From Escherichia virus TH22, in the sequence record MT446396.1: a stretch of DNA of 64,000 bases; one strand, given 5' to 3'. Shown one piece after another: positions 30,979-37,654 of this stretch. The notes under the pieces are model-generated. The model searched no databases. It was not told the DNA's origin and worked only from the letters and a program-made list of their open reading frames with translations. Numbering within the stretch: position 1 is the first letter of the stretch; each line of letters opens with the position of its first letter. A program made the position numbers and the translations under genes.

Positions 30979-32157
30979 ATGTCTATTGCAGATTTGAAAT
31001 CCCGTTTGATTAAAGCTTCTACATCCAAAATGACTGCGACTCTTACTAAGTCCAAGTTTTTTAATGATAAAGATGTAGTTCGTACAAAAATCCCGATGCT
31101 GAACATTGCAATCAGCGGTGCACTAGATGGTGGTATGCAGTCAGGTTTGACTATTTTTGCTGGTCCGTCAAAACACTTTAAATCCAATATGGGTTTAACG
31201 ATGGTCTCTGCATATATGAACAAATACCCCGATGCAATCTGTTTGTTCTATGATTCAGAATTTGGTATCACAGAAGCATATCTTCGTGCAATGAAAGTTG
31301 ACCCGGAACGTGTTATTCACACACCAATCCAGTCGGTTGAACAATTGAAAGTTGATATGGTTAACCAGCTTGAAGCAATTGAGCGTGGTGAAAAAGTCAT
31401 TATCTTTATTGACTCAATCGGTAACATGGCGTCTAAAAAAGAAACAGAAGATGCGATGAACGAAAAAGTCGTTGGCGATATGACTCGCGCTAAATCCCTG
31501 AAATCTCTATTCCGTATTGTTACCCCATATTTTAGTATCAAGGATATCCCTTGTGTCGCGGTTAACCATACAATTGAGACGATTGAGATGTACAGCAAAA
31601 CCGTTATGACCGGTGGTACAGGTGTTATGTATTCTGCAGACACCGTATTCATTATCGGTAAACGTCAGATTAAAGAAACTGGTAAAGAACTTGAAGGTTT
31701 CCAATTTGTTCTGAACGCCGAAAAATCTCGTATGGTCAAAGAGAAAAGTAAATTCTTCATTGATGTAAAATTCGATGGGGGTATTGACCCGTATTCTGGC
31801 CTGCTTGATATGGCAATGGAAATTGGATTTGTGGTGAAACCGAAAGTTGGTTGGTATAACCGTGAATATCTTGATGTTGAGACCGGTGAAATGGTCCGCG
31901 AAGAAAAATCATGGCGTGCAAAAGATACTAACTGTACCGAATTCTGGGGTCCATTGTTCAAGCACGAACCTTTCCGTGATGCAATCAAACGACATTACCA
32001 GCTGGGTGCAATCGATAGCAATGCTGTTGTTGACGCCGAAGTTGATGCGCTTATTGCCTCCAAGGTTGAAAAATACTCTGCCCCTGAAGGTAAGGCAAAA
32101 CCATCTGCGGCAGATATCGAAAACGATTTAGATATGATGGAAGACCTTGATGAATGA
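30979..32157 (+). CDS. uvsX: recombinase UvsX (RecA-like)
   Basis: 392 aa; Walker A GPSKHFKS; collinear with T4 UvsX. Confidence 0.95.
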   Translation: MSIADLKSRLIKASTSKMTATLTKSKFFNDKDVVRTKIPMLNIAISGALDGGMQSGLTIFAGPSKHFKSNMGLTMVSAYMNKYPDAICLFYDSEFGITEAYLRAMKVDPERVIHTPIQSVEQLKVDMVNQLEAIERGEKVIIFIDSIGNMASKKETEDAMNEKVVGDMTRAKSLKSLFRIVTPYFSIKDIPCVAVNHTIETIEMYSKTVMTGGTGVMYSADTVFIIGKRQIKETGKELEGFQFVLNAEKSRMVKEKSKFFIDVKFDGGIDPYSGLLDMAMEIGFVVKPKVGWYNREYLDVETGEMVREEKSWRAKDTNCTEFWGPLFKHEPFRDAIKRHYQLGAIDSNAVVDAEVDALIASKVEKYSAPEGKAKPSAADIENDLDMMEDLDE

Positions 32158-32491
32158 TATCGATTTATCTGATTTAGATAATTTCGAGAAAGATGCGGAG
32201 GGAGCTAAGGCTCCTTCTGTGCCTTACTACGAAAAAAGTTTGGAGATTATCCGGCAATCCATGGGAACCGTACGACAGGAAATTCTGTTATCACTCCCTG
32301 ATGGGTCCAATCACATTGTGTACGTAACCGGAATTAAAATTGAACCATCTGGAAAAGTTTCAGTTGATTTCGGCACCCCTTCTGAAGACCGCAAAGCGGA
32401 GCTTGCAGTGCATGTAGAAAAGTGTGTTACAATGCAAATACAAGATGAAATTGATAAGATTAAAATGAAAAAGAGGTGGTGGAAGTGGTAG
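32147..32491 (+). CDS. 40: gp40-like head vertex assembly protein (by synteny)
   Basis: 114-aa ORF between uvsX and 41. Confidence 0.5.
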   Translation: MMNDIDLSDLDNFEKDAEGAKAPSVPYYEKSLEIIRQSMGTVRQEILLSLPDGSNHIVYVTGIKIEPSGKVSVDFGTPSEDRKAELAVHVEKCVTMQIQDEIDKIKMKKRWWKW

Positions 32492-33915
32492 AAACTATTT
32501 TATCCCAGCTACTCTTTAACAAGGAATATTTTGTTAAAGTCTGGCCATATCTGAATAGCACATATTTTGAAAAGGGTCCCGCGAAGACCCTTTTTAATAC
32601 GATTAACGAACACGTAAAAGAATATCAAGCTGTACCAACTAAGACTGCACTTGATATTGCACTTGACAACTCTGACCTTTCTGAAGTCGAATATGAAGGC
32701 ACAAAGAAACTTTTAGGAGTCCTGGCCGATACTCCAGAAGACCAGGAATGGTTGGTTAGAGAAACCGAAAAGTATGTACAGAAGTCTGCGATGTTCAATG
32801 CCACATCCAGGATTATCGAAATCCAGAGTAATGCCGAACTTCCTAAAGATAAACGTGATAAACGAATCCCGGATATCGGTGCTATCCCTGACATCATGCG
32901 TGATGCATTGTCCATCTGTTTTGATTCTGCCCTTGGTCATGACTGGTTAAACGATTACGAGGCTCGATTCCAGACTTATCTGAACAAATCGAAGAAAGTT
33001 CCGTTCCGCATTAACATCCTGAATAAAATTACGAAAGGCGGGGTTGAGTACGGTACAGAGAACGTTTTACTAGCCGGGACGAATGTCGGTAAATCTCTGG
33101 GGCTTTGTTCGTTAGCGGCTGACTATCTTCAGACTGGTCATAACGTTCTTTATATAAGCATGGAAATGGCCGAAGAAGTATGTGCCAAACGTATTGATGC
33201 CAACTTGCTGGATGTATCTCTGGATGATATTGATGAAGGTCATATATCATGGGCGGAATATAAAGCTAAGATGGAAAAATGGCGTGCTTCCGGGACTCTC
33301 GGGACTCTGAAGATAAAACAATATCCAACTGGTGGTGCTCATGCGGATACCTTCCGTGCATTACTGAACGAGTACAAACTGAAGCAAGGGTTTGTACCGG
33401 ATGTGATTATTGTTGACTACCTGGCAATCTGTGCAAGCTCAAGACTGAAAACGTTTACCGAAAACAGTTACGGCCTGATTAAGATGGTTGCAGAAGAACT
33501 TCGTGGTCTGGCAGTTGAGAAAAATGTGGTCTTGTGGACTGCAGCGCAGACAACCAGGGGCGCGAACGTTGCAGCCGAGATTGATATGGCTGACATTGCA
33601 GAATCCTTTGGTATTGCTCACACGGCTGACTTTATGCTGGGTGTTGTTGAGACCGAAGAATTCGCTCAAATGGGGCTGCAGTTAATCAAACAGCTTAAGT
33701 CTCGTTATGGTGATAAGAACTACTATAATAAATTCAAGATGGGTGTTAAGAAAGGTAATCAGCGCTGGTATGAGGTTGATGATGATTCGGCTCCTAAACA
33801 AGGCCCTACGGTTAAAGAAGCCACCGGTGAGATGAATCGCCAGGCCGAAATGAATCGACAAACCAGGGTCAACAGGAGCGACCTGGATGACCTTGCTGCT
33901 CAAATGAAATTTTAA
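32485..33915 (+). CDS. 41: replicative DNA helicase gp41 (DnaB-like)
   Basis: 476 aa from GTG with AAGAGG SD; Walker A GTNVGKS; collinear with T4 gp41. Confidence 0.9.
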   Translation: MVETILSQLLFNKEYFVKVWPYLNSTYFEKGPAKTLFNTINEHVKEYQAVPTKTALDIALDNSDLSEVEYEGTKKLLGVLADTPEDQEWLVRETEKYVQKSAMFNATSRIIEIQSNAELPKDKRDKRIPDIGAIPDIMRDALSICFDSALGHDWLNDYEARFQTYLNKSKKVPFRINILNKITKGGVEYGTENVLLAGTNVGKSLGLCSLAADYLQTGHNVLYISMEMAEEVCAKRIDANLLDVSLDDIDEGHISWAEYKAKMEKWRASGTLGTLKIKQYPTGGAHADTFRALLNEYKLKQGFVPDVIIVDYLAICASSRLKTFTENSYGLIKMVAEELRGLAVEKNVVLWTAAQTTRGANVAAEIDMADIAESFGIAHTADFMLGVVETEEFAQMGLQLIKQLKSRYGDKNYYNKFKMGVKKGNQRWYEVDDDSAPKQGPTVKEATGEMNRQAEMNRQTRVNRSDLDDLAAQMKF

Positions 33916-33925
33916 AATATTTTAA

Positions 33926-33949
33926 AAGGGGCTTACGGCCCCTTTTTCT
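33926..33949 (+). terminator. intrinsic terminator
   Basis: GGGGCTTACGGCCCC hairpin + TTTTT. Confidence 0.65.
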
Positions 33950-33986
33950 TATGTTATAATGACCCTATCAACTACTGGAGAATAAA
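33950..33986 (+). promoter_or_regulatory. early promoter with family-A leader
   Basis: TATAAT 33955-33960 then CTATCAACTACTGGAG. Confidence 0.5.
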
Positions 33987-34304
33987 ATGAAAACTATTGA
34001 TTGCAAGGCGGAATACAAAGTTTATTATCATGGCTCAAGCTCTAATGCTGGAATCCAAAATATGCTTTGCCCTCCTGATGCAACTGGTGTTCTGTCAGAA
34101 GTTGGGCGTAAGAAAAATTTAGGGCGTGTGTTTTTTACTGAAGATATTGGTTTGGCGCGTATCTATGCAGGAAGAGCAGCTCGCTCATATGGAGGAGAAC
34201 CCCGTCTTTATCGTGTGATTGCACCTGTTGACGTGGTTTGTTTAAATGATACTAAAGGCGCAACCGTTTATCACGCCGCCTGGGCCTTCTGTGAGGAAAT
34301 CTAA
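33987..34304 (+). CDS. hypothetical protein with PARP-like HGS / G-x-[VI]-[FY]-F-[AT]-[DE] motifs
   Basis: 105 aa; YYHGSSSNAGI ... GRVFFTEDIGLARIY resembles the NAD-binding signature of H-Y-E class ADP-ribosyltransferases; too short for a full catalytic domain. Confidence 0.4.
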   Translation: MKTIDCKAEYKVYYHGSSSNAGIQNMLCPPDATGVLSEVGRKKNLGRVFFTEDIGLARIYAGRAARSYGGEPRLYRVIAPVDVVCLNDTKGATVYHAAWAFCEEI

Positions 34305-34508
34305 ATGTATAAATTAGAGAACGTAGTGTTTATTGGTTGGTTTGAAAATGGTAATATGTTTACCAAAGAAACCGCGCTGGATGTTAGTGACCAAAATATG
34401 ATTGAATGGGTTACAGTGCAGTATGCAGAAGTGAATAATGCGCTGGTTAAAGCCTTTGTTAATGACAATAAAGTTTTTGAATATGATGCCCGCATTGAGG
34501 AAATTTAA
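34305..34508 (+). CDS. hypothetical small protein (Dmd-like by size/position only)
   Basis: 67 aa in the 41-61 interval where T4 carries dmd. Confidence 0.25.
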   Translation: MYKLENVVFIGWFENGNMFTKETALDVSDQNMIEWVTVQYAEVNNALVKAFVNDNKVFEYDARIEEI

Positions 34509-34748
34509 ATGAATATCACATTAATGAAACCTACCCCTAGTTCTTTTTGGAATAAATCTTTTGGTAAGCATAATATGTTTATCCAACGCACCGTAAGCAG
34601 CTGGGAACTAGTTCTTTCGGAAGACCATGGCGGTTATGAACAAGAATACGTAGAGTTCTTCGAATTTCCTGTGAAACCTACCAAGCGTCAGATTCGTCAG
34701 ACAAAACGCAAATTCCGTAAAATTTATCTGGAAGATGCATTAAAATAG
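34509..34748 (+). CDS. hypothetical protein with basic C-terminal tail (PTKRQIR)
   Basis: 79 aa; tail motif shared with ORF 35901..36122. Confidence 0.3.
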   Translation: MNITLMKPTPSSFWNKSFGKHNMFIQRTVSSWELVLSEDHGGYEQEYVEFFEFPVKPTKRQIRQTKRKFRKIYLEDALK

Positions 34749-34805
34749 TGTACAACAAAGGGATAATGCTGTATATTATCCATATCAACTACTGAGGAGA
34801 TTGAA
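34748..34805 (+). promoter_or_regulatory. early promoter with family-A leader
   Basis: GTGTACA, TATATTAT, CCATATCAACTACTGAGGAG. Confidence 0.5.
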
Positions 34806-35099
34806 ATGAAAAAGTTATTAATCGCGGCAATTCTTACCGTAGCATCATGTGGTACAGCTCCAGTTACTGCTGGACTTGATAAAAACCTTTGTGAGTGGTC
34901 TATGACTGCGGACCAAACTGATGTTGAAACTCAAATTCGCGCTGACATCATGAATATTACTAAACGTGACCGCCCTGATATGGTTAAAGAAGTATCTGAC
35001 CAATTGACTTCTGGTGACGTTATGCAGTATAACTATGTTCTGTATTGCGATGCTTCATTTGACAATAGCAAAATTGTTCAATGGGTTACAGGTGAATAA
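34806..35099 (+). CDS. sp: Spackle-like periplasmic superinfection-exclusion protein
   Basis: 97 aa, signal peptide (LTVASCG); size and position (61.3 slot between 41 and 61) match T4 Sp. Confidence 0.5.
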   Translation: MKKLLIAAILTVASCGTAPVTAGLDKNLCEWSMTADQTDVETQIRADIMNITKRDRPDMVKEVSDQLTSGDVMQYNYVLYCDASFDNSKIVQWVTGE

Positions 35100-35100
35100 A

Positions 35101-35538
35101 ATGATTAACAGAAATTTGGTTATCAAAAAACTTCGTTGTAAAAATCCAAATGCGCAGGCATACAGGGTGTTTTGGAGCGACGAAATTCAATATCTGGGTT
35201 ATTTTCTTGTTGATAGTGATGATAGAATTACGTTTGCTCATAAACTTCTTAACAAAGAATTAAACCATTGGAAAGAACTTATTGCAGTCAAGTCTAAATT
35301 ATTTTCGCGCAATACAATGCACCAATTGGTTTATTTTTTCGCTGATGGTATTCCTGACAAGGTTGAGTTTGAAGGGTTTGAATTTAAAGACATCAACCCT
35401 GACAATGAATTGAATGACAGTATTGTTAATATGGGTATCCCTGGCAAGTACATCAAAAACAGTCTTTTGAAAATTCTGGAAAATCCTGTTTATTCAGTTG
35501 ACGACCAGATTTTTAATGCCTTCATGAAGCGAGATTAG
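35101..35538 (+). CDS. hypothetical protein
   Basis: 145 aa; C-terminus DDQIFNAFMKRD repeated in next ORF. Confidence 0.35.
   Translation: MINRNLVIKKLRCKNPNAQAYRVFWSDEIQYLGYFLVDSDDRITFAHKLLNKELNHWKELIAVKSKLFSRNTMHQLVYFFADGIPDKVEFEGFEFKDINPDNELNDSIVNMGIPGKYIKNSLLKILENPVYSVDDQIFNAFMKRD
35499..35536 (+). repeat. 36-38 bp direct repeat, copy 1
   Basis: GACGACCAGATTTTTAATGCCTTCATGAAGCGAGATTAG; near-identical to 35860..35897. Confidence 0.8.
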
Positions 35539-35539
35539 T

Positions 35540-35899
35540 ATGAGTTATTATAATTTTCTGAATTTTGAACTGGTGAGCAATAATAATGGTAATGCTCACT
35601 ATGAATTTCGTGAGCCCCGTTATAATCAGGCGATTGGTTATATCATCGTTAAAGATGGTGTTATCATAAAGGCTCGTTCGTTTATGACAATGAATGGGCC
35701 TTGTGAAGATAATCGTGGTTATCCATTTGATAAAAAGAACGTACGCGATTGTGCAGTATGGATAACCGGAAACCCTGAAATTGGGGTCATGATATCTACT
35801 GAAGCAAATGACATTCTGGAAGGGGCTTGGGTTAAAGCTCAAGAACCGCCTACTGATATTGATGACCAGATTTTTAATGCCTTCATGAAGCGAGGTTAA
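35540..35899 (+). CDS. hypothetical protein (bracketed by direct repeats)
   Basis: 119-aa ORF ending DDQIFNAFMKRG. Confidence 0.35.
   Translation: MSYYNFLNFELVSNNNGNAHYEFREPRYNQAIGYIIVKDGVIIKARSFMTMNGPCEDNRGYPFDKKNVRDCAVWITGNPEIGVMISTEANDILEGAWVKAQEPPTDIDDQIFNAFMKRG
35860..35897 (+). repeat. 36-38 bp direct repeat, copy 2
   Basis: GATGACCAGATTTTTAATGCCTTCATGAAGCGAGGTTAA. Confidence 0.8.
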
Positions 35900-35900
35900 T

Positions 35901-36122
35901 ATGTTTGTTTTGACCCAATTCTCTAAAGCAATATATAGTTACTCTTGTCAGTGGGAAGTCTTTATTGATACTCCGTCTCCCAAGTATGGAGTTTTTGGAC
36001 GAGTAACTACTCAAGCTTATGTTGCACGACCGACCAAACGTCAGATTCGTAAACTTAAAAAGGCACATCGTCAATTGATTAAAAGAAGGGAACAATATGA
36101 GTGCAATGTGTACGGGCTCTAA
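35901..36122 (+). CDS. hypothetical protein with basic C-terminal tail (PTKRQIR)
   Basis: 73-aa ORF. Confidence 0.3.
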   Translation: MFVLTQFSKAIYSYSCQWEVFIDTPSPKYGVFGRVTTQAYVARPTKRQIRKLKKAHRQLIKRREQYECNVYGL

Positions 36123-36288
36123 GATTTCGGTCTTCCAGATTTTTGAAGAATATGAAATCGTGTCGCAAGACCAAGAAGCAATCCATGTTATCGCTGATGA
36201 TGGTGTTACCTGGATTATTCCGTTGTATCATGAAGACACTTATGAAGTGACTGATGCAAATGGTGATAAAGCTATCTTCGTTGTATAA
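36097..36288 (+). CDS. hypothetical acidic protein
   Basis: 63-aa ORF. Confidence 0.3.
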   Translation: MSAMCTGSKISVFQIFEEYEIVSQDQEAIHVIADDGVTWIIPLYHEDTYEVTDANGDKAIFVV

Positions 36289-36291
36289 ATA
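36284..36291 (+). promoter_or_regulatory. T4-type late promoter core TATAAATA
   Basis: exact TATAAATA 17 nt upstream of a small ORF. Confidence 0.4.
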
Positions 36292-36307
36292 GCGGAAAGG
36301 GGGTGTT

Positions 36308-36475
36308 ATGAAAACATTCAAAGATTTTATCAACGAAGATATGGCTGCCGGTGATGCAGGTGGAAACCCAACTAATATCGCAACAGGTACCACTTCCGGG
36401 GCAGTTGTCAATAAAGGCCCTGAACAAATCCCATCAAAAAAGCGTAAGAATAAAGACGATAAACCTACAGTATAA
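36308..36475 (+). CDS. hypothetical small Gly/Lys-rich protein
   Basis: 55 aa with GGGGTG-containing SD; followed by hairpin; below track cutoff. Confidence 0.3.
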   Translation: MKTFKDFINEDMAAGDAGGNPTNIATGTTSGAVVNKGPEQIPSKKRKNKDDKPTV

Positions 36476-36507
36476 TGGTCCTTCGGGGCCATTGAAATGA
36501 GGAAACT

Positions 36508-37536
36508 ATGTCATATATTGATAGAGAATTTGCAGTCAGAGCTTTATCGTATCAACCACGTTATAGAGAAGTCACCGGGAGCACATTTAAGGCAAACTGT
36601 CGTTGCAAGGTTTGTGGTGACTCCCAGAAAGATTCGCACAAGGCTCGATTCTGGGCGTATACCAATCCGTCTGATGGTGCGGTTTACGTGAAATGTTTTA
36701 ACTGTGACTACTCCACGCATATAAGCAAATACATAAAAGAGTTTGAGCCGGATTTGCACCGGGAATATATGGTTGAGAAGTACAAGGAAAACGCCTTCGG
36801 TCGACAACGTAATGAAGTTGCAGAAGCTCCGAAAGAACAAGAAAAAACTCCGGTTATTGAAGAGCTTGCTTTTTGCGAAAGAATCGATACTTTACCAGAA
36901 GCGCATCCGATAGTTAAGTATGTGAAAAGTCGGTGTATTCCGAGCAATGTTTGGAACCGGTTATGGTTTACAAACAAATGGCCTGCATTAGTTAACTCCG
37001 TTAATCCTGGGACGTATAAGAATGAAACGAATGAACCACGCTTGGTTATTCCTATCTTCAACGGCAAAAAAGAAATCGAATCTTTCCAAGGACGAGCTCT
37101 TCGCAAAGATGCACCACAAAAATATATCACAATCAAAGCTCACCCAGAAGCTTCCAAAGTCTATGGCGTAGACAAGATTGATGAGCGCAAGCGCGTGTGG
37201 GTAATGGAAGGTCCGATTGATAGTTTGTTTATCCCTAACAGCATTGCGATAACCGGTGGAACATTAGCATTGGAAGCCGTTCCTTATGCTGAAACCCGAG
37301 TATGGGTAATGGACAACGAGCCAAGACATCCGGATACGATTAAACGTATGAAGAAGCTCGTTGAAGCGGGTGAAGCCGTTATGTTCTGGGACAATGCACC
37401 ATGGCATACGAAAGACATAAATGAGATGGTTAAATCGGAGGGCGCAACCCCTGAACAAATCGAATCATATATGGCCGATAACATTGCTCAAGGGTTGATG
37501 GCGAGAATGCGACTTTCGAAGTACGCAAAAGTTTAG
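36508..37536 (+). CDS. 61: DNA primase gp61
   Basis: 342 aa; N-terminal Zn ribbon CRCKVCG...CFNCD, TOPRIM-like EGPIDSLF / VMDNEP. Confidence 0.9.
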   Translation: MSYIDREFAVRALSYQPRYREVTGSTFKANCRCKVCGDSQKDSHKARFWAYTNPSDGAVYVKCFNCDYSTHISKYIKEFEPDLHREYMVEKYKENAFGRQRNEVAEAPKEQEKTPVIEELAFCERIDTLPEAHPIVKYVKSRCIPSNVWNRLWFTNKWPALVNSVNPGTYKNETNEPRLVIPIFNGKKEIESFQGRALRKDAPQKYITIKAHPEASKVYGVDKIDERKRVWVMEGPIDSLFIPNSIAITGGTLALEAVPYAETRVWVMDNEPRHPDTIKRMKKLVEAGEAVMFWDNAPWHTKDINEMVKSEGATPEQIESYMADNIAQGLMARMRLSKYAKV

Positions 37537-37654
37537 GAAGGGATTCCGGTAAGTTCCACAGAAAAACATCAAGAGCTAAAAAGCCCATGATGTTTCTTGT
37601 CTTTCTTACTGGTTAATTTCCAAATCCGATGGAATAATATTCACATTATTCCAT

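Follow-up and report, generated by a model that had tools for sequence, protein, structure and literature searches.

We analyzed a 64,000-nucleotide stretch of the sequence record of Escherichia virus TH22 (MT446396.1; hereafter, the window), in which a small gene lies between the helicase gene 41 and dmd. A first-pass annotation, made from the letters alone, had noticed in its 105-amino-acid product two motifs reminiscent of ADP-ribosyltransferases (ARTs). Both motifs are present in the open reading frame (ORF) at 33987..34304 on the + strand, and structure prediction and profile comparison reveal that the product has a minimal ART fold. Its nearest relatives are Arr and the nicotinamide adenine dinucleotide (NAD)-binding lobe of Tpt1/KptA, not PARP or diphtheria toxin.

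The locus between gene 41 and dmd

The window DNA is that of a T-even-type coliphage. Positions 32000-37600 match Escherichia phages UPEC07 and TH55 at 100% identity, and the UPEC07 record (MW250787.1) is classified as Gaprivervirus, Tevenvirinae. The locus contains the following features:

30979-32157, + strand: uvsX, an ORF of the window
between uvsX and gene 41, + strand: gene 40
32476-33915, + strand: gene 41 helicase, with the ORF ending at 33915
33924..33946, + strand: intrinsic terminator hairpin after gene 41, found by a terminator scan (10-bp stem, loop TAC, then a T run)
33931..33960, + strand: predicted T4-type early promoter (-35-like GCTTAC at 33931-33936, 18-nt spacer, extended -10 TGTTATAAT at 33952-33960)
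33977..33980, + strand: Shine-Dalgarno GGAG, 6 nt before the ART ATG and kept as GGAG(A) in related loci
33987..34304, + strand: ART ORF with ATG start, 105 amino acids, PHROG phrog_2110 (E 1e-58), a minimal Arr/KptA-like NAD-binding lobe
34305..34508, + strand: dmd, 67 amino acids (phrog_2102 Dmd, E 2e-33; 57% identity to T4 Dmd)
34509-34748, + strand: homolog of T4 gp61.4/TifA (45% identity, E 3e-16)
34806-35099, + strand: spackle (sp), followed by several small ORFs
36508-37536, + strand: primase gene 61

The dmd ATG directly abuts the ART stop codon in the same reading frame, and the two genes are presumably co-transcribed. T4 gp61.4 is the ToxN inhibitor TifA, and PMC10853763 describes its gene as an early one of T4. 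The ART gene therefore adjoins dmd, tifA and sp, in keeping with the earlier assignment of the 41-61 interval as a counter-defense region. In T4 itself the gap between gene 41 and dmd is only 58 bp, and dmd stands there without an ART; tblastn detected no ART homolog at this locus or in the first 50 kb of the T4 genome.

Between gene 41 and the ART gene lies a terminator-promoter cassette. As RNA, the hairpin at 33924-33946 folds with -16.4 kcal/mol (z = -4.0 versus shuffles), and a GC hairpin with a T run also follows gene 41 in 12 related loci. The promoter was read from the sequence; a generic scanner omitted it because its -35 element is weak. We compared the gene 41-ART spacers of the 12 related loci with the gene 41-dmd spacer of T4. 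The relatives carry GTTTAC-N17-TGnTAyTAT at the equivalent site, and T4 carries GTTTAC...TGGTATAGT directly before dmd, all of which we take to fit the T4 early-promoter consensus. Since relatives have the same hairpin and early promoter, and T4 has the promoter before dmd, the ART gene appears to head the early dmd operon. The cassette is thus predicted to be the ancestral early promoter of the dmd transcription unit, with the ART gene as the first cistron behind it, and from the consensus we infer early transcription of an ART-dmd-tifA-sp operon. A MotA-type middle promoter was rejected because 19 nt separate the GCTTA of the hairpin from the -10 element, more than the spacing of a MotA box allows.

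In the window, the -35-like GCTTAC lies within the loop and 3′ arm of the gene 41 hairpin; in relatives, hairpin and GTTTAC are separate. The terminator and promoter of the window thus appear compacted and overlapping.

The cassette had been taken as the mark of an independently acquired module. While the cassette itself is real, the module inference is weak, since the promoter is probably the ancestral one of dmd and the G+C content at third codon positions (GC3) of the ART gene (0.31) is the same as that of the neighboring genes. Recent foreign acquisition was rejected because of this match in GC3.

Fold, homology and active site

An AlphaFold2 model made with 33 homologs (predicted local distance difference test score [pLDDT] 87; predicted template modeling score [pTM] 0.78) contains strands at residues 13-18, 48-51, 72-78, 84-87, 94-97 and 100-104 and a long helix at residues 54-68. 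Residues 31-50 are the least confident stretch (pLDDT 75-82). The model has the split beta-sheet of ARTs, and nearly all structures that it retrieves have ART folds. The closest of these is the NAD lobe of Thermococcus Tpt1 (score 8.4; root-mean-square deviation 2.0 over 75 residues), followed by Arr (7.5), AcrIF11 (6.8) and diphtheria toxin (5.9). Further ARTs appear in the long list below diphtheria toxin, and the match to RES is much weaker than those to Tpt1 or Arr. In Foldseek, the only confident PDB matches were two Arr structures.

Sequence profiles gave a similar picture. The only database match of the single protein is PHROG phrog_2110, to which no function is assigned there. A profile search of 1.84 billion representatives yielded 249 relatives. 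Among 37 family members, 23 matched Pfam Arr-ms (PF12120), with a best E of 3e-8 and several scores over the gathering cutoff; these matches span only model positions 1-67 of 99. A search of PDB sequences with a narrow alignment (A1) returned no match; with a broadened family profile (A2), Arr entries were the sole PDB sequence matches. Alignment of the family profile to an Arr alignment by HHalign had a probability of 95.3% (E 2e-8) over residues 9-84. Since this alignment, the Arr-only PDB matches and the ART folds retrieved by the predicted structure agree, the motif resemblance is beyond chance. The ART fold and the homology to Arr are well supported.

We scored conservation over 260 family members, both stand-alone and embedded in larger proteins. 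Four segments stand out:

34029..34037, + strand: codons of H15-G16-S17, the strand-1 H-G-[ST] NAD motif, with H and G essentially invariant
34098..34118, + strand: codons of E38-V-G-R41-K-K43-N44, an acidic/basic loop that is the family signature and the least confidently modeled part
34128..34139, + strand: codons of V48-F49-F50-T51, the strand-2 motif, with F49 in place of Arr Y49 and Tpt1 H122
34164..34175, + strand: codons of Y60-A-G-R63 on the long helix, with Y60 and R/K63 invariant

The two motifs noticed at the outset, YYHGSSSNAGI and GRVFFTEDIGLARIY, are residues 13-23 and 46-60. H15-G16-S17 aligns with Arr H19-G20-T21 and, by motif, with TkoTpt1 H98-G99-T100; the E-x-G-R of the signature loop aligns to Arr E-A-G-R, and T51 aligns with Arr T51. 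Position 49 is F in 250 members and Y in 9. Essentially invariant are H15, G16, S/T17, P29, P30, E38, R41, K43, N44, V48, F49, T51, A57, Y60, A61, R/K63, G69, G70, G91, V94 and A100. E38 is the sole acidic residue conserved family-wide; E103 is conserved in the stand-alone phage subgroup only.

In TkoTpt1, H98 is essential (H98A is dead), G99 contacts the nicotinamide amide and H122 hydrogen bonds to the ribose 2″-OH (PMC12678800). Arr requires H19, Y49 and D84, the last of which is 100% conserved in a DPN[V/L] motif (PMC6092378). When Tpt1 residues are mapped by motif alignment, not superposition, H15 corresponds to H98, G16 to G99, S17 to T100, F49 to H122 and Y60 to T133. Y60 would then pack on nicotinamide, at the position of T133, and R63 would lie near the pyrophosphate (R136/H137). 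The counterpart of the fourth tetrad Arg (TkoTpt1 R118) may be R41 or R47.

The predicted active-site pattern is therefore H15, F49 and a hydrophobic residue, V94 (H-F-hydrophobic). Among described clades, it seems closest to "H-H-h", with roles in RNA repair, small-molecule modification and soluble ADP-ribose (ADPr) products (Iyer et al. 2022, PMC9503650); that these three roles are those of KptA, Arr and RES-type enzymes is our reading and not the wording of Iyer et al. Membership in the PARP/diphtheria-toxin H-Y-E clade was rejected, as F49 replaces Tyr and the start of strand 5 has no conserved Glu, Asp or Gln. Thus, the first-pass annotation of a PARP/diphtheria-toxin-type protein was right about the fold and wrong about the clade. 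The likeness it saw between H-G-S and V-F-F-T and NAD-site motifs is borne out by the HHalign comparison, and its remark that the usual catalytic Glu is not obvious extends to the family, as no canonical catalytic Glu is conserved over the 260 members. Of its "minimal or decoy" ART-fold protein, we retain the minimal fold; a decoy is not favored, since the NAD-contacting positions are invariant across the family, the domains within multi-enzyme injected proteins included.

The phage ART differs from each of its better known relatives. Compared with Arr (PF12120; PDB 2HW2, 9IAF, 9IBA), it is ∼40 residues shorter and has F for Y49. It ends ∼20 residues past the aligned core, without the DPN motif that holds the catalytic D84 and without the C-terminal region (∼85-143) that binds rifampin. 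Arr is found in resistance cassettes, whereas the phage ART occurs in lytic T4-like phages and polyvalent effectors. Tpt1/KptA (PDB 9LD3, 7KW9) has an N-terminal RNA-binding lobe and the Arg-His-Arg of the tetrad, both absent from the phage ART, and identity with canonical Tpt1 was rejected because there is no N lobe. Where Tpt1/KptA has V-H-h-S with a second His, the phage ART has V48-F49-F50-T51, and it contains an extra conserved PP...SE-GRKKN loop. To AcrIF11 (PDB 6KYF), a phage/plasmid anti-CRISPR mono-ART, no sequence-level relationship was detected; AcrIF11 targets a Cas protein, whereas no such system is linked to the phage ART. T4 Alt, ModA and ModB are presented in PMC10468400 as early-acting NAD+-dependent phage ARTs directed at the host. 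They belong to the R-S-E clade, are much larger and have no detectable sequence similarity to the H-F-h phage ART.

Distribution, neighbors and domain fusions

By tblastn, the ART gene is present in 609 phage records, in 605 of them near full length, and the host genera include Escherichia, Klebsiella, Acinetobacter, Aeromonas, Enterobacter and Vibrio. A few records label it "putative ADP-ribosyl transferase" or "rifampin ADP-ribosyl transferase." In the genomes allowing comparison (the window versus loci L007-L044), the ART exceeds the gp41 helicase and gp61 primase of the same genomes in conservation. Identities in L012 are 87% for the ART, 69% for gp41 and 61% for gp61; in L042, which is of Acinetobacter type, they are 71%, 58% and 54%. 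The reverse holds for L027/L028 (ART 79%, gp41 99%), which indicates swapping of ART alleles between closely related phages. The ART gene is real and under selection, and purifying selection is extreme.

A single divergent stand-alone copy was found in a jumbo-phage-like contig. In Aeromonas phage AS-gz (L005 3089-3574), an ORF annotated as guanosine-3′,5′-bis(diphosphate) 3′-pyrophosphohydrolase (SpoT-like) lies one gene past the ART, and the ART may have a nucleotide-signaling context in Aeromonas phages.

The window copy stands alone, but 53 of the 260 members are ∼95-amino-acid domains within proteins of more than 200 and up to 3924 amino acids. Their architectures include lambda-type portal + ART + 2H phosphoesterase, ART-PolyVal + ART + NUDIX, GNAT + ART + LPD23, and PcfJ-like + ART. 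"Polyvalent" proteins are injected effectors of phages and conjugative elements (Iyer et al. 2017). In P0153 and P0154, a 2H phosphoesterase (Acb1/2′-5′ RNA ligase-like) or a NUDIX domain comes directly after the ART module. Substrates of such enzymes are derivatives of ADP-ribose or cyclic phosphates. 2H and NUDIX enzymes are described as processing KptA products (Iyer et al. 2022, PMC9503650). This is a possible hint that the product of the module is soluble or phosphate-linked ADPr.

For gene neighbors we examined 55 IMG/VR loci, four GenBank loci and the window. No conserved partner gene of the ART was found among the loci analyzed. In 13 of them, the ART is preceded by an unrelated protein of 291 amino acids, which was rejected as a general ART partner since it has no homolog in the window. 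This protein of 250-300 amino acids and unassigned function (L003 1593-2468, L005 1683-2441 and 11 more loci, among them Slopekvirus-like and Tulanevirus-like ones) is the second commonest upstream neighbor after gp41, and one record notes an HHpred likeness to DNA polymerase delta subunit.

Other small ORFs of the window drew our attention. One at 35901-36122, 1.2 kb past the TifA homolog, has in common with it a basic PTKRQIR... motif (E 6e-5) and the PHROGs phrog_2375/3272; the phage may carry two TifA-like paralogs (34509-34748 and 35901-36122). The adjoining ORFs 35101-35538 (phrog_8539) and 35540-35899 (phrog_4122) are otherwise unrelated and have a common C-terminal peptide, DDQIFNAFMKR[DG] (BLASTP E 3e-6), which could be a tail/docking motif or a recombination scar. 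In the UPEC07 record (MW250787.1, 2488-4976), small ORFs bear implausible product names: the ART is "clamp loader subunit DNA polymerase," the TifA-like ORF "DNA polymerase" and spackle "periplasmic rIV," while others are named "nucleotidyltransferase" and "major capsid domain-containing protein."

Candidate functions

The reading we favor, with confidence only a little better than even, is that the gene encodes an active mono-ADP-ribosyltransferase that is pared down to the NAD lobe, depends on NAD+, acts early on a host molecule and serves host takeover or counter-defense. The gene would be transcribed immediately after infection from the T4-type early promoter, as the first in the dmd-tifA-sp operon. 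After binding NAD+ via H15-G16-S17, F49/T51, Y60 and R63, the enzyme would expel nicotinamide and, with no canonical Glu on strand 5, pass ADP-ribose to an acceptor, either a conserved host molecule or one bearing RNA or phosphate. Acceptor binding and the role of catalytic lid would probably both fall to the invariant loop E38-x-G-R41-K-K43-N44. We favor activity over a decoy because residues on the nicotinamide side do not vary, purifying selection is extreme, the domain occurs in enzyme-rich injected effectors and the module twice stands directly before domains that process ADPr products (2H and NUDIX). H-Y-I PARPs are active without a strand-5 acid. Since Tpt1 is also active without one (PMC12678800), activity of the phage ART is possible.

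Several observations weigh against this reading. The start of strand 5 has no conserved acid, with T/S at position 93 in stand-alone copies, T/E in embedded ones, and V at position 94. At the positions equivalent to Arr D84 (85-88), the protein has C/L/N/D and the family varies, so that D84 is absent, and the second His of Tpt1 (H122) is replaced by Phe. Three of the four catalytic tetrad residues of Tpt1 reside in the missing N lobe, making canonical Tpt1 chemistry impossible, and the protein has no acceptor-binding domain. By itself, the 105-amino-acid protein has no match in Pfam (even at E<=10), NCBIfam, PADLOC or PDB sequences. Finally, fusions to 2H and NUDIX number just two, and neighboring domains of polyvalent proteins may act independently.

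What the acceptor might be is more tentative. That it is a phosphate or hydroxyl of RNA, nucleic acid or a nucleotide (KptA/Arr-type chemistry), not a protein Arg or Glu, is a suggestion we would not bet on. It is favored because the best structural match is Tpt1, a strand-5 acid is lacking as in Tpt1, the invariant loop is basic, the module is fused to 2H and NUDIX domains, and the neighbors Dmd and TifA inhibit RNase toxins. An equally speculative extension, and on balance an unlikely one, is that the ∼95-amino-acid NAD lobe is self-sufficient, uses the E38-x-G-R-K-K-N lid in place of the strand-5 Glu and acts as an immediate-early factor with Dmd and TifA against RNase- or nucleotide-based immunity. 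If true, T-even phages would have a fourth class of ART with a mechanism of its own, among the smallest active ARTs known.

Since a "p0068-family" ART paired with Dmd in phages of Escherichia, Shigella and Salmonella was read as a toxin-antitoxin system (Iyer et al. 2022, Viruses 14:1977, PMC9503650), we asked how the present gene relates to it. By the described synteny with dmd alone, it is almost certainly of the same family: in both, the ART lies immediately upstream of dmd, in the same enterobacterial phage group. Iyer et al. placed p0068 in the H-Y-[EDQ] clade and speculated on RNA targets (PMC9503650), whereas the phage ART has the H-F-hydrophobic pattern, affinities to Arr and KptA, and a link to Dmd that is not conserved. 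A type II system with the ART as toxin and the adjoining Dmd as antitoxin would fit this published proposal, the abutting stop and start codons in the window, the adjacency in related loci and the role of Dmd as a known antitoxin mimic. However, only 10 of the 55 IMG/VR loci have Dmd directly behind the ART, and in eight loci gp41-ART has no Dmd within 4 kb. The genes beside the ART in phages of Klebsiella, Acinetobacter, Aeromonas and Vibrio show no relationship to Dmd; the equivalent site of T4 holds dmd but no ART, and the domain is also embedded in polyvalent proteins without Dmd. Because there is no conserved partner and the adjacency is explained by a shared early promoter, with the ART inserted between it and dmd, we consider an obligate toxin-antitoxin pair improbable.

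The remaining alternatives concern the chemistry. The phage ART could be a non-catalytic binder, either a sponge or decoy for NAD+, ADP-ribose or an ADPr-derived immune signal or an ART mimic that titrates a host factor. Phages are known to use small early proteins as sponges for immune nucleotides, and a very small protein with no canonical catalytic acid and no acceptor domain would suit this strategy. Nevertheless, the backbone position of G16, F49 and Y60 are invariant, and binding of ADPr or a signal alone would not require nicotinamide-side residues. As the domain also stands among enzymes in polyvalent effectors, directly before 2H or NUDIX, and ARTs such as Tpt1 are active without a strand-5 acid (PMC12678800), we regard a pure binder as quite unlikely. 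We see little chance that the protein is an NAD+ glycohydrolase or phosphorylase (RES/MbcT-like) that alters host metabolism or disarms an NAD-dependent defense. The structural match to RES is far behind those to Tpt1 and Arr, depletion of NAD+ normally harms phages, being an abortive-infection tactic of the host (PMC9503650), and there is no conserved antidote partner. The product name "rifampin ADP-ribosyl transferase" in some GenBank records, together with the homology, could suggest a bona fide Arr that modifies rifamycins and so shields the host RNA polymerase during infection. Yet the alignment ends at about Arr residue 83, DPN[V/L] with D84 and the C-terminal rifampin contacts (S99, V140) are missing, and the window protein is below every Pfam threshold, making this role very improbable indeed.

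Our literature searches found no experimental study of this ART family. Its fold has already been guessed computationally, and within the known ART superfamily it stands as a divergent, uncharacterized family. Viral ADP-ribosylation has its classic model in the T-even phages, with Alt, ModA and ModB, and this gene adds a different and much smaller type of ART. Conservation above that of the replicative helicase and primase, together with recurrence in injected polyvalent proteins, argues for an important, conserved host target. The position at the head of an operon beside inhibitors of RNase toxins offers an experimental entry point, including a test of the toxin-antitoxin proposal. Should the protein prove active, it would show what minimum of the ART fold suffices for catalysis when the canonical Glu is absent.
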